From NCBI GenBank assembly GCA_024679065.1, contig JAGIQG010000010.1:10106001-10170000 (forward strand): a stretch of DNA of 64,000 nucleotides, in the 5' to 3' direction. Below the pieces are notes generated by a model. It saw nothing but the letters and a program-made list of their open reading frames with translations, had not been told where the DNA came from and did not search any database. A program made the position numbers and the translations under genes. How positions within the stretch are numbered: the first letter of the stretch is position 1; the number at the start of each line of letters is the position of its first letter. The DNA is from Sphyrna mokarran (lineage: Eukaryota). Below, piece after piece: positions 2,922 to 37,602 of this stretch.

Positions 2922-3090
2922 CTGATGGGGAGATACTGGATTGGAAGTGGGTAAACACAATAAGAAATCTCACAACATCAGGTTAAAGTCCAACAGGTTT
3001 ATTTGGTAGGAAAAGCCACTAGCTTTTGGAGCACAGCCCTTTTGTCAGGTGAGTGGGAGTTCTATTCACAAACAAGGCATATAAAGAGTC
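2922..3090 (-). mobile_element. Penelope-like element terminal fragment with degenerate hammerhead
   Basis: Homologous to the 3' part of the GIY-YIG-bearing copy at 27371-27920; core reads CTGACAA..CAAAA (CpG-decayed). Confidence 0.75.
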
Positions 3091-3572
3091 ACCCCAATTT
3101 TATATCACTCAGCAATTCAAGTCTAGATTTTTGAATGATGGAGAGCCACTTTATCATTGTGAAAGTGGCAAAGGAGACCAAAAAATCTTAAGTTTCACTG
3201 CCAAACATAACACAACCATTTTCCTGGTGGTAGGTCACTTTTATGAATACACATTTCACAGAGGCAACTGCCAATATATATGGCAGATTTCTTCACTCAT
3301 GTCTAATTTTGGTGACCCAAGTGTGTGATACACAACATGCACAGTTTATATCTGATGGGAACAGTTCTGAACTTTGCAGAGTCTTTTGGAGAGATTATAT
3401 ACCGTTTTGAAGAGGTTATATAGAAATGGCCCCAGGACAACTTTGTGCGAGGTCAGGTACTGCTTGGAAGAAGTAAAGTGTCATTTGGGATTGTTACAAA
3501 TAGGCATGAATGTACATAAAAAGTGCATAAACTAATTGATGGTCAAGCTCATTAGCACTATCAAAAATATTC

Positions 3573-9879: not shown

Positions 9880-10018
9880 NNNNNNNNNNNNNNNNNNNNN
9901 NNNNNNNNNNNNNNNNNNNNNNNNNNNNNNNNNNNNNNNNNNNNNNNNNNNNNNNNNNNNNNNNNNNNNNNNNNNNNNNNNNNNNNNNNNNNNNNNNNNN
10001 NNNNNNNNNNNNNNNNNN
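9880..10018. other. Assembly gap (139 N)
   Basis: Run of N. Confidence 1.
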
Positions 10019-10189: not shown

Positions 10190-10395
10190 ACAGTAAGATG
10201 TCTCACAACACCAGGTTAAAGTCCAACCAGTTTATTTGATAGTAAACCCACAAGCTTTCGGAAATGCTGTTCCTTCGTCAGGTGTGTGGAAAGTTTTGCT
10301 CAGAGAAGGACATATAAAGAAAAACACAGTTTACAGAATACTGTTTAGAATGCAAGTCTTTACAGCTAACCTGCTATTCAAGTCATAAAGGTACT
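10190..10395 (-). mobile_element. Penelope-like element terminal fragment
   Basis: CAGTAAGATGTCTCACAACACCAGGTTAAAGTCCAAC.. homologous to the 27371-27920 3' UTR. Confidence 0.8.
10249..10284 (-). ncRNA. Minimal type I hammerhead ribozyme motif, intact core
   Basis: Minus strand CAC-CUGACGA-A-GGAA(CAGCAU)UUCC-GAAA-GCUU-GUG: stem I CAC/GUG, stem II GGAA/UUCC, palindromic AAGCUU in place of stem III. Confidence 0.75.
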
Positions 10396-16071: not shown

Positions 16072-16388
16072 AATCACAGAATCTTACAATGCAGAAGGAG
16101 GCTATTTGGTCCATCAAGTCTGCACTGACCACAATCCCACCCAGGCCCTTTCCCTATTAACCTATGCATTTACCCTATCTAGTCCCCATGACACAAAGGG
16201 GCATTTTAGCATGGCCAATCCACCAAACCCGCGCATCTTTGGACTGTGGAAGGAAACCAGAGCACCTGGTGGAAACCTACGCAGGCACAGGGAGAATGTG
16301 CAAACTCCACACAGACAGTGACCCAAGCTGAGACTCGAATCCTGGTGCTGTGAGGCAGCAGTGCTAATCTCTGTGCCATCATGCCATC
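16072..16388 (-). mobile_element. V-SINE, tail type A
   Basis: Consensus match. Confidence 0.85.
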
Positions 16389-16479
16389 CAAAGCTTTGGG
16401 GAATGCTTATGCCTGGTTTCGAACCAGAGAACTTCTGCATGTGAAGCAAATTTGAAAACCACTACACTGCAGTAACACT

Positions 16480-17802: not shown

Positions 17803-18543
17803 CAGACTGTCCCAGTGTGCCACAACAATGCTGCTTGGATGCCCTGGAATGATCAGAAGTTTAAGCAAAGGCATTCTCCTGATATCCCACTCTTTGGGGA
17901 CAGTAGCAAACATAATAGCTGGGCAATTTGTCTCACTAAGCATTACTTAATATTGGGTAATGTGCTTCAGAGATGCAATTTTTCCACTTTCAGCTACTGT
18001 TCCCCAACCTACTCTGCTCAGACGTGAAAGTGATACATAATGTCAGAGCAAAGAATGTGGGAGCTTTCCAGAGACAACATTCCAGAAGTTTAATATCTCT
18101 GAGGTGTATGTCTGCTATGATGTACTGGCTACCTTGAGCCCACGTGGCAGTATTAATCCTGTCTGTGAGAGGTAGAATTGAACATTATTACAGCATAACT
18201 TAACACATGACAGAAAGTCAGAAATTAGCACAATGATCAAACAAGGAATCACATTAGAAAAGGAGTTTAATGGTTATTAATTTCTCTACGAGTTAATAAT
18301 CTGTGCATTCATTTCCGCATCTCAGACAAGATACATCAACCATAGCAGGGGTGCAGCACAGATTCAGTAGAATTTAACATGGCTAAAATATGTAGAGAAT
18401 AGAGGGATTTAGACCATGTAGAGGCAAGAAAATATTAGATAGAAGAGATATCTTTGTTGGCACAGACTTGGTGGGCCAAAAGGCCTGTTCTTGTGCTGAT
18501 TATTCTTTATTCTTTCTTTGTAAAAGAATTAAAAAGAGTTCTT

Positions 18544-18876
18544 GTGGCACAGTGGTTCGTATTACTGCCTCATAGCTCCAGGGACCCAGAAGCAATCTGG
18601 CCTTGGGTGACTGTGTGGAGTTTGCACATTTTCTCCATGTCTGCACAGGTTTCTTCCAGGTGCTCCAGTTTCTTCCCACAATCTGAAGATGTGTGGATTA
18701 GATGGATTGGCCACACTAAATACTCCTTCATGTCCAAAGATGTCTAGTTTAGGGAGAATAGCGAGTAAACTGGTGGGGTTAAGGGGATAGAGTCTAGAGA
18801 AGATGCTCTGCCGGAGAATTGGTGCTGACTCAATGGATTGAATGGCCTCCTTCTGCATTGCAAGGATGCTATGATC
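18544..18876 (+). mobile_element. V-SINE, tail type A
   Basis: Consensus match. Confidence 0.85.
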
Positions 18877-19054
18877 TAATGATAAGGCTCCCTCCAAGGT
18901 TTCACGGCTAAGGAAGGAGCATTCGTAATGGTCAATCTGCAAATCCAACGTGCCCTTGATAAGAGTGAGAGAACTTCTTGGGTCAGTCATGCTTGATGTG
19001 GAATTGTACCCCTCACTGTCTCACCACTGACCAGCAATCTGTTCCAGGTGAGCT

Positions 19055-19270
19055 ATGATATGGAGATGCCAGCATTGAACTGGAGAAAACACTATAAGAA
19101 GTCTTACAGTTAAAAGTTAAAGTCCAACAGATCTAGCTGGTAGCAAAAGGCACTAGCTGTCCGAGTGCTGTTCCTTCATCATGATGAAGGAGCAGCACTT
19201 CGAAAGCTAGTGGCTTTTGCTACCAAATAAACGCGTTGGTAATTAACCTGGTGTTGTGAGACTTCTCACC
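19055..19270. mobile_element. Fold-back of two inverted PLE terminal copies fused at the hammerhead core
   Basis: Perfect palindrome TCCTTCATCA|TGATGAAGGA centred at 19181/19182; imperfect arms of about 85-90 bp. Confidence 0.85.
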
Positions 19271-19984
19271 AGGAAAGCTAGCCACTGATCAGATATAGCT
19301 GTGTGTGCTTTGTCTGTCTAGGCATGGTAAGAGAAATAAGAAAAGATGTAAGGAGAGTTTGCACAGACTAGACTTATACTCCCTTCGAGTTTAGAAGATT
19401 AAGAAGTGATCGAACTAAGGTGTTAAAATGATTAAAACTTTGAATAACATTTCTTTTATTTCCACTGATGGGGGGTGGGGGGAGTGCTTAAAATCAGGAA
19501 ATATTTCTTCTGCCAAAGTAGAAATCTGGGATTCTCTAATGTCAAAAAATATTGTTGAGGCTGTGGGTCAATTAAAGAATTTTAGAACTGAGATTTTGTC
19601 AGGCAGGCTAGAGTAATGGAATAATAGTGGGTATGTGGTCAATATACTGATCAGCCATCATCTAATTTAATAGCATTAAGCTAAAGGGGCTGAATAGCCT
19701 TCTTCTATTCTTAGGAATAAGATATTTTCAATAATGATCAGATGGTCCAGCAACATCAATTTATATGGTATGATCATCCAGTAAGGCAAGATTTGTGACC
19801 ATCAAAGTTAGGGCAGCTTCTTCTTTCGGCTTGAGTCAGTTGATGCTTGCTTCCTAGCCTAGCTAATAGGTTCATCACCATGAGGAAGGAAAGCCACATT
19901 TCCATCTCTGTGGGAGTTCAAATTAATCTCATCCAGCATCACTCTACCCATTCCCACCTCCACATCCATGCACTTTGATCATGC

Positions 19985-24099: not shown

Positions 24100-24790
24100 C
24101 TTGAATTTAAACACATTTTTCATACTTGCTGGACATCTTCAGGTGCTTTACACCTGATGAATCACTTTTTGAAATGTGCTCACGAGTAACAAAGGGAACA
24201 AGGCATCACAGTAGCGCAATGGTTAGCACAGCTGCCTCACAGCACCATGGACCTGGGTTCGAATCCTGTCTTGGATCACTGTCTGTGTGCATGTTCTCTG
24301 TGTGGGTTTCCTCTAGGTGCACTGGTTTCCTCTCACAGTCTGAAGGGTGGGCGCACTGGCCATGCTAAATTCTCCTTCAGGGTACCTGAACAGGTGCTGG
24401 AGTGAGGTGACCAGGGGATTTTTACAGTTACTTCATTGAAGTATTCATGTAAGCTTACTTGTGATTACTAAATTAACTTAGATTGAACTCCGACAATCCC
24501 ATCAAAACGATCATGACTGGATAATCTGTTTCTTGTGATGTTAGTTGAGGGACAAATATTGACCAAGACACCAGGGATAATGCCCCTATCTTTTTTAAAT
24601 TAGTGCAATGGAATCCTTTACATCCATCTGAATAGGCAGATAAGACCTTGGTTCAACATCTCATTTCAAAGATAGATCATACAACAACGCAGTGTTCCTT
24701 CAGTACTGCACTGGAATGTCTGCCTTAATTTTTTGTGCTCAAGTCCTGAATAGAGATTTTAACTTGGAACCTTGTAATTCACAGGATGAG
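24100..24790 (-). mobile_element. Deu-type SINE interrupted by a + strand V-SINE (24202-24478)
   Basis: TTGAGGGACAAATATTGACCAAGACACCAGGGATAA (Deu core, reverse); tail resumes left of the insert. Confidence 0.7.
24202..24478 (+). mobile_element. V-SINE, tail type B
   Basis: Consensus match. Confidence 0.8.
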
Positions 24791-27370: not shown

Positions 27371-27920
27371 TGTACGACAATCACCAGGCAGGTGTGTTCC
27401 CTTCCAGTCGGGAACACTTCAGCAGTCAAGGACATTCAGCCTCTGATCTTTGGGTAAGTGTTCTCCAAGATGACCTTCAAAACACACGACAACACAAAAT
27501 CACCGAGCAGAAACTGAGACCCAAGTTCCGCATGCATGAGATTGGCCTCAACCAGGTTCTTGGGTTCATGTCACACTACATTTAACCCCTGCCATTTGGC
27601 CTGGGCTTGCAAAATCTTGCTAATTGTTCTGATAATTCACACCCTCTTTAATCTGTGATTATCTCTCTCTCCACTTTCACTGTCTGTACTTGCAAAGACT
27701 TGATTACCTGCAAAGACTCACACATTCCAACCATTATCTTATAATTGTGTCTTTGTCTATATACGTGATGTTTATGAAACCTATCTTTACACTCACTTGA
27801 TGAAGGAACAGCGCTCCAAAAGCTCATGATTCCAAATAAACCTGTTGGAATTTAGCCTGGCATTGTGAGACTTCTTACTGTGCCTACTCCAGCCCAATGT
27901 TGGCATCGCCACATCATGGC
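27371..27920 (+). mobile_element. Penelope-like retroelement 3' part: GIY-YIG endonuclease C-terminus plus 3' UTR with degenerate hammerhead
   Basis: ORF 27370: EHFSSQGHSASDL.VSVLQ..EQKL..KF..H..GLN..LGF, the typical PLE endonuclease end; hammerhead remnant CAC-TTGATGA-A-GGAAC(AGC)GCTCC-AAAA-GCTC at about 27794-27828. Confidence 0.85.
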
Positions 27921-30648: not shown

Positions 30649-30659
30649 ATTGGAATTCT

Positions 30660-30796
30660 CCATTCACCTGATGAAGAGGCAAACCCTGAAAGTTTGTGAG
30701 TTTACTATCAAATAAATTGGTTGTACTTTAACCTGGTGTTGTGAGACTTCTTACTGTGTTTACCCCAGTCCAACACCGGCATCTCCACACCATGAC
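30660..30796 (+). mobile_element. PLE terminal fragment
   Basis: Homologous to 27790-27920. Confidence 0.8.
30665..30698 (+). ncRNA. Minimal hammerhead motif (core intact, stem II weakened)
   Basis: CAC-CUGAUGA-AGAGGCAAACCCU-GAAA-GUUU-GUG. Confidence 0.55.
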
Positions 30797-36492: not shown

Positions 36493-37602
36493 TTCGAACG
36501 GAGCAGATTCCACTTATCAAATGACATTTGATAGAAGCCTAGAAAGGTCTTCTAAGAAACCGTTTATAAGATGAATTCTGGCGGCCTGATTCGAGTTTAT
36601 TGAGAGATTCAGAGGTTTATTAGTTTTATAAAGATCTCATCACTCAATCATGATAAGCATTTCAGTGACATGGCTCAGGGGCTACTAATAGCTACATGAA
36701 TGGTATGACTACAGGAATGTGGGAAGAGAGAGAAAAGAAGCACGTGGCATTAATACGCAGCTCATGTTCAAAAACATCTGATAGGCAGATGATGTGAAAC
36801 TGGGAAGAAAGGGCACATCATTTAAAAGCTTGTTTGCATTCTAACAGATAAACGCAGAAAGCAGCAACGTGTAGGGTCATTTAAAAACTGAGTTTATGCG
36901 GCACTCTGGAAATGACATGTTGTTGATTCCCCCTGAATATTAATTTCTGTGCTTTGATCAGGGAATTACATTAGTCAGTTGCATTTCTGCAGAATAAAAG
37001 AATGAGAGGTGATACCAAGGACTGATCCTTACCTTAGTCCCACCTACCCGAATTTGTAATCTTCAAACCCTCGCAGATTTCCCCTGGTTAGGATTCAATG
37101 GCAGTGCCACAGTGTGTCTCCACATGCAGCCCCCTCTCCTCACCTGCCCCTCCACCCCTCTCCCGGCTCCCCCCTCCCCAGCCACTGGCAGATGAAGCAG
37201 GGTCACAACACCAGATTAAAGTCTAACAGGTTTATTTGGTAGTATGGGACTTAGTAAGATAGAGGGTTGTAGATAAGCCTACTAGGAAGGGATATGTTCA
37301 GCGCAACTTGTGGGCTGAAGGACCTGTTTGTGCTGTAGTTTTTCTATGTTCTACGTTCAAACGCCACTAGCATTTAGTTAGTTAGGATGAAACAGGCCAT
37401 TTAAATTGCACTTACTTCAGTTGGATCATAACATCTCATTGGGCAAGAGGGAGCCACTCAGATCCCAGTGCACATCTGAAGATCCTTTCCCTGACTCGAC
37501 CTGAAACTCCAATTTTAAAGATCGCCCTGCAACCCCACCTCCCTGCACACCACCCTTCCCAACTGCACCCCCACTCCCTGACCACCAGCCCCGATGCTCT
37601 AA

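Follow-up and report, generated by a model that had tools for sequence, protein, structure and literature searches.

The hairpin at positions 19055-19269 of the 64,000-nt stretch of Sphyrna mokarran DNA analysed here (the window) folds back on itself inside the core of a hammerhead ribozyme, which raises the question of whether this axis is special and how such a structure was made. The 215-base hairpin is a single insertion of a Neptune-like Penelope-like element (PLE), comprising two head-to-head pLTR ends. The insertion, likely dead on arrival, was probably built by twin priming on one RNA.

The fold-back reported in the first-pass annotation was borne out, with the axis at 19181/19182 and TCCTTCATCA joined directly to TGATGAAGGA (gap 0, microhomology 0). 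The arms had been expected to pair over about 85-90 bp; the span is indeed 88 nt, but the pairing is imperfect, with 65 of 88 ungapped positions matched, distributed as 39/44 in the inner 44 nt and 26/44 in the outer 44 nt. Both strands were folded and gave the anticipated rod shape, with an energy of -96.2 kcal/mol for the + strand (z = -9.9 relative to 200 shuffles) and a similar result for the - strand. The hammerhead described in the right arm was also recovered, with 19182-19212 reading UGAUGA-A-GGAG(CAGCA)CUUC-GAAA-GCUA-GUG and lacking C3 and the 5' strand of stem I. The left arm is its decayed mirror, as proposed (101/126 matches to the family profile, against 79/88 for the right arm), with the GAAA box changed to GACA, and the same two hammerhead parts are missing from it. 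A feature missed in the first reading is that the left arm is the longer one, as it carries a 39-nt tail that is absent from the right arm. The hairpin is surrounded by a target-site duplication (TSD) of 12 bp, 10/12 identical and flush with both family ends; its score of 6 is under the cut-offs used for the family counts, and its recognition depends on its exact placement. The coordinates are collected in Table 1.

Table 1. Coordinates of the hairpin components and of a related PLE copy in the window
Feature	Position	Strand	Basis and remarks
TSD, left copy	19044..19055	+	12 bp; final base common to tail end
PLE tail, 39 nt, left arm only	19055..19093	-	47 long arms aligned: two sharp 3' ends
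Tail-bearing pLTR arm	19094..19181	-	Starts at hammerhead U4 (+1 from C3; joint junction call); 101/126 to profile including tail
Decayed hammerhead mirror in tail-bearing arm	19151-19181	-	
Head-to-head junction	19181..19182	.	No spacer, no microhomology
Tail-less pLTR arm	19182..19269	+	Start +1, end +88 = short 3' end of the family; 79/88 to profile
Truncated minimal type I hammerhead	19182..19212	+	Sequence; family covariation in stems I and II; predicted inactive
TSD, right copy	19269..19280	+	First base common to arm end
Solo 5'-truncated related PLE copy	27375..27920	+	Endonuclease-domain end, 3' UTR, pLTR, tail; tblastn P0008 aa 815-880, E 9e-14; blastn

The cut of the truncated hammerhead is predicted to fall after 19209, and Rfam at gathering thresholds gave no hammerhead match in the window. 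Judged from its sequence, which no longer has C3 or stem I, the ribozyme is predicted to be dead regardless of any antisense pairing. TATA-like and start-site motifs are absent from both arms. The hairpin is an ordinary copy, likely dead on arrival; it has neither promoter-like motifs nor a working ribozyme and is likely inert.

The PLE origin suggested in the first-pass annotation was confirmed by long fold-backs of the same family that carry RT and GIY-YIG coding sequence; at three loci (L059, L095 and L034), RT and EN coding sequence ends in the hairpin's type of pLTR. A 235-aa piece of the family RT shared 70-74% identity with the five best-matching shark proteins, which have an RT-linker-GIY-YIG layout. 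The GIY-YIG domain (Pfam PF01541) was found in more distant homologues, and Pfam matches of the raw family fragments were weak (RVT_1, E 0.016). A CxxxxCxxC motif is present in the linker of P0001, P0003 and P0008, the three closest of the four shark-protein homologues examined, and is decayed in the genome copies of the family. A Zn-finger-like cysteine motif in the RT-EN linker is described as a mark of Neptune and Nematis PLEs (PMC8557442). The designation "Neptune-like" is therefore provisional, as it rests on this linker motif, which is also found in Nematis.

The arms of the family have two sharp 3' ends lying one tail apart, and in intact copies (L074 and L192) the ATG of the ORF directly follows the tail. 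That the family has a minimal hammerhead, as had been claimed, was backed by covariation in stems I and II. In 21 complete motifs from the census tiles described below and the window, with relatedness uncontrolled, pair 2 of stem I and pair 3 of stem II exceeded all 1,000 shuffles, and N7 was variable.

Several other elements were recorded. In addition to the solo copy listed in Table 1, the window harbours solo arms of related PLE subfamilies at 2923-3102 (-), 10190-10394 (-), 30652-30791 (+) and 37195-37245 (-). At L074:1329-1660, two pLTRs, both starting 4-6 nt before C3, are linked by about 73 bp of ORF start in a miniature partial tandem. P0011, a shark protein with an epn2-isoform annotation, contains a PLE RT segment, which probably reflects either a chimeric annotation or the exonisation of an insertion. 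A second small CTGATGA palindrome in the window (24130-24175) had no relative among the sampled loci and is possibly due to chance. The window also contains at least 16 dispersed copies of a SINE-like repeat whose head resembles a tRNA (for example 168-600, 16190-16476 and 18537-18727), one tRNA-like Rfam match, at threshold, at 16404-16476, and a run of 139 N at 9880-10018.

Recurrence of the exact axis, for which a count of junction copies had been proposed as the check, was not found. The junction is present in 5 family copies including that of the window, as against 4,130 places in which the two half-patterns are separated by a spacer of 1-30 nt; the reversed control gave 47 such places. 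An 18-nt pattern across the exact axis occurs at 7 places genome-wide, 5 of them in the family, and these five same-axis copies differ in stem II or in downstream sequence. Among 76 mapped junctions, 74 were distinct. Arm ends at 0 to +2 (C3 = 0) were at chance level (6 versus 5.6 expected), and these ends, together with the spacer-pattern counts, ruled out the exact axis as a hot spot. Since the junctions are nearly all distinct and the axis is not recurrent, the hairpins are made anew at each insertion, with no master hairpin. The window hairpin is an atypical, trimmed member of the family, in which both arms begin at +1 and the join is blunt, and it does not lie at the hot spot described below.

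These counts bear on the proposal that the structure is a self-silenced, non-autonomous, retrozyme-like unit propagating in hairpin form. The very stable rod, the TSD and the tens of thousands of similar hairpins (by extrapolation) would all fit such a unit. The diversity of the junctions and the differences among same-axis copies argue against it, as do the lack of a tandem array, the absence of TATA-like and start-site motifs from both arms, the loss of C3 and stem I from the ribozyme, and the decay of the arms without compensation (65/88). The proposal was thus not supported, and is considered extremely improbable.

The family survey covered 1.4 Mb of a 2.77-Gb genome, sampled as 140 tiles of 10 kb at even spacing along eight large contigs. 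The tiles contained 124 arms of the hairpin's repeat, which by rough extrapolation corresponds to about 250,000 arms genome-wide. About half of the insertions in the tiles (approximately 43 of 81) were fold-backs, with arms from less than 100 bp to 1.8 kb. In 26 of the tile fold-backs both arms end at most 40 nt upstream of C3, equivalent to about 50,000 genome-wide by extrapolation. Junctions were analysed in a set of 75 fold-backs, of which 35 were unbiased (from tiles and anchor loci) and 40 were picked by pattern in proportion to bin counts, a selection that leaves out very short arms. The unbiased set was derived from 38 candidates, with L200 and L158 dropped as unconvincing and the window copy left out. 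Arm starts from plain BLAST and nhmmer gave false pile-ups at +25 to +35 or overran into the other arm, and a joint junction caller was used instead; in simulations, 75% of its calls were within 2 nt. A DNA search with the hairpin as query returned 3,271 candidates, and all 40 of those scored were fold-backs; the query selects such structures, so these loci were excluded from the distributions.

A TSD score of at least 8 was obtained for 47/76 fold-backs compared with 5/228 shuffled flank pairs, and the duplications were mostly 11-14 bp long. Exactly one tail was present in 68/75 fold-backs, the remainder being tail/tail (5) or short/short (2); the tail calls for L055 and L067 were set by eye, and the one-tail count without both is 66/75. 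Among the fold-backs with a supported TSD, all 47 had exactly one tail. Two near-perfect young hairpins of another subfamily were also seen (L071:8039-8263 and L192:2055-2284), with axes at about +4 and -7. At five further loci (L052:9062-9206, L078, L199, L062 and L075) the tailed arm is barely more than the tail, inverted at the far end; such arms may account for the "tail at either end" of the literature.

The first-pass annotation had also raised the possibility of a recurrent template-switch point at the ribozyme. Breakpoints do recur near the ribozyme, but the hot spot lies 4-7 nt before C3, outside the core. Family breakpoints were not uniformly spread, the alternative named in that annotation. 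Of the 115 arm ends of the 75 fold-backs that fell within -25 to +36, 34 were at -7 to -4, compared with 8.8% in a leave-one-out simulation with uniform ends (p 2e-10). When fold-backs genome-wide were sorted by inner length into five 31-nt bins, the counts were 154/439/648/225/113. A constant stop rate was rejected for these bins (chi2 266), and an added stop near the front of the hammerhead fitted them (chi2 10, with three free parameters for five bins).

The position of this peak might indicate that the ribozyme itself sets the breakpoint, either through cleavage of the template or through a fold that stalls or redirects the RT. The hammerhead is no more than about 40 nt from the end of most short arms, the peak coincides with the 5' edge of stem I, covariation supports the hammerhead in the family, and some junctions use its self-complementary bases. 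However, a peak at the cleavage site was ruled out (5 ends versus 5.6 expected), there was no excess in the core at 0 to +2, and an RT moving 3' to 5' would be expected to stall at the 3' side of the stem and not beyond its 5' edge. In addition, ribozyme mutants left insertion in vitro unchanged, as described for the anole element (PMC11167929), and a breakpoint set by the ribozyme does not predict the extra G described below. Control by the ribozyme is therefore regarded as very unlikely. Another candidate cause was an antisense motif. Read antisense across C3, the family pLTR has the sequence CAG/GTGAGT in the main subfamilies (for example in the window at 3040-3060, +), a splice-donor consensus, and the motif is absent from other subfamilies. 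It was rejected as the cause of the breakpoints, as there were 0 arm ends at position 0 and other subfamilies lack the motif.

The base composition of the ends pointed to the start of the transcript. A TATA-like motif starts at -38 in the family, and the bases around A(-6) may fit an initiator consensus. The template base before A(-6) is C; the non-C bases found before A(-6) were G (1,644 cases), T (1,316) and A (692). Among inspected loci, truncation exactly before A(-6) was verified for 27/30 with G, 10/20 with T and 10/12 with A, so that G accounts for about 55% of the truncated ends with a non-C base, compared with 27% expected from base composition. In 17/27 of the G ends a T precedes the G, and in 9/27 a GT does, which mirrors the neighbouring TCAC; in some loci the extra G also lies within the target duplication. 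An extra G is described as a mark of capped 5' ends in L1 (PMC11702581). From the sequence pattern we infer that the enriched untemplated G before A(-6) may be the trace of a capped RNA start. A snap-back of 2-4 nt or addition by a terminal transferase could yield the same G, and each would still need a cDNA end at -6.

The preferred model, twin priming, would proceed as follows. The RT-endonuclease would nick both target strands about 12-14 bp apart. A single RNA, uncleaved, would then serve as template for both target 3' ends, with reverse transcription from each beginning at one or the other of two sites within the 5' pLTR. The enzyme from the tail-less start would lead and often run off the capped 5' end, and the enzyme from the tail end would trail and usually stop earlier. 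The two cDNA ends would then be linked in a blunt join, through short microhomology or via filler bases. In the window copy, a further 7 or so bases would be missing from both arms, removed either when the ends were joined or in a deletion afterwards. The hammerhead would thus lie at the hairpin tip because it is at the very start of the transcript, and not as a result of cutting or folding there.

The lengths of the arms are consistent with this order of events. In the unbiased set (34 one-tailed fold-backs of 35), the tail-less arm extended further in 27, the tailed arm in 5, and 2 were ties (p 1e-4); among TSD-supported fold-backs the tail-less arm was further in 18 versus 5. The asymmetry was weaker in the 40 pattern-picked fold-backs (20 versus 9, p 0.06), and the tailed arm was further in 14/61 non-tied cases overall. 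Arms of the same insertion were more alike than arms across insertions (median 0.87 versus 0.83, p 6e-6) and belonged to the same profile class in 69/69 cases. Joins without filler made up 31/75, and central microhomology of at least 2 nt was present in 11/31 against 15%, a modest enrichment given by a caller that is biased upward. The published account of the anole element (PMC11167929) describes cutting and extension of both strands, two RT starts that define the tail, a predicted dimer, and uncleaved RNA as the substrate.

The likeness of arms within an insertion would also be explained by snap-back, in which the cDNA 3' end folds and self-primes, or an antisense template does so, to yield the inverted arm. 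Snap-back has been reported for R2 proteins, mainly after full-length cDNA (PMC11371274), and self-priming on an antisense template has been proposed for PLE palindromes (PMC3846280). It may account for the 14/61 cases in which the tailed arm is further. However, a copy of a tail-less cDNA cannot gain a tail, so snap-back needs the tailed arm to be further, and the reverse was found in 27/32 non-tied unbiased fold-backs. It also offers no reason for the second arm to stop at a site shared with the ends of TSD-flanked solo insertions. Snap-back is considered unlikely as the general source of the arms.

For the window copy itself, the zero-spacer axis might be secondary, with a usual hairpin with a short spacer later losing its centre by deletion. 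The same bases, up to +1, are missing from the two arms, whose match to the profile (80% and 90%) marks them as old, and the changes in the left arm are clustered; such a deletion is compatible with an origin of the hairpin by twin priming. A later deletion is nevertheless unneeded, given that four more family members share the axis and that joins are often blunt, and the chance that it occurred is judged to be slim.

Twin priming could also be the default mode of integration for these PLEs, with a dimeric RT-endonuclease, one capped uncleaved RNA, two fixed starts and short cDNA of a "strong-stop"-like kind; this broader proposition seems about evenly balanced between true and false. The family pattern also suggests, from its sequence traces, that in vivo the RNAs that were copied had escaped cleavage by the ribozyme.

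The hairpin shares its main features with EN+ PLEs as described for Pen2/Pen2a of Adineta vaga (PMC3846280) and Penelope of D. virilis (PMC2377424), and in a published scheme (PMC8557442), namely the inverted pLTR, the hammerhead and the junction palindrome. Published EN+ PLE insertions in the same three sources have a one-sided tail of 30-40 bp and a TSD, as does the window hairpin. In contrast to them, nothing but the two pLTR ends is present in the hairpin, which spans 215 bp and has no ORF; stubs of this kind occur in very large numbers, and the ends of this family pile up just before the hammerhead. A further parallel is with Poseidon PAc of Anolis carolinensis (PMC11167929), whose two fixed 3' ends are likewise separated by one tail and lie about as far downstream of the hammerhead, and for which uncleaved RNA is described as the template, as the shark family would also require. 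The PAc ORF starts in stem II, whereas that of the shark family is directly after the tail, and relatives of the shark family, unlike PAc, carry the Neptune/Nematis linker cysteine motif.

The minimal hammerheads of metazoan PLEs (PMC4209133) are likewise type I, with a bulged A before stem II and a palindromic stem III junction, and pairs of them on opposite strands, 100-700 bp apart, have already been described there; the window copy differs in lacking C3 and stem I and is predicted to be dead. In L1 twin priming (PMC11702581), a second target end also primes on the RNA, the TSD is kept and an extra 5' G is found at full-length ends. The inverted pieces of L1 are described as non-overlapping and inversion as affecting a minority, whereas in the PLE family the same segment is copied from two fixed starts and about half of the insertions fold back. 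Non-LTR retrozymes (bioRxiv 10.64898/2026.07.22.740005) are also non-coding, hammerhead-bearing and related to PLE pLTRs, but they are described as head-to-tail tandems with complete hammerheads, and the window hairpin is a lone head-to-head pair with a broken hammerhead.

The arrangement of an inverted pLTR with a tail on one side and a TSD is already published (PMC3846280, PMC8557442, PMC2377424). One of these accounts (PMC8557442) describes the way in which PLEs acquire inverted repeats and a one-sided tail as undefined, and the text of the in vitro study (PMC11167929) leaves the inverted arms unexplained. Among the titles and abstract openings covered by the literature search, no application of twin priming or cap run-off to PLEs was found. 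Three predictions follow for the existing in vitro system: each pair should have one tailed and one tail-less arm, the tail-less one should be ahead, and copying should stop at the RNA cap with an extra G. If the model is true, one twin-priming step would explain the inverted pLTR, the one-sided tail and the roughly 50,000 mini hairpins, and would show that the hammerhead had not cut the copied RNAs. The window copy is debris; the statistics of its family matter more, as a clue to the integration of PLEs.
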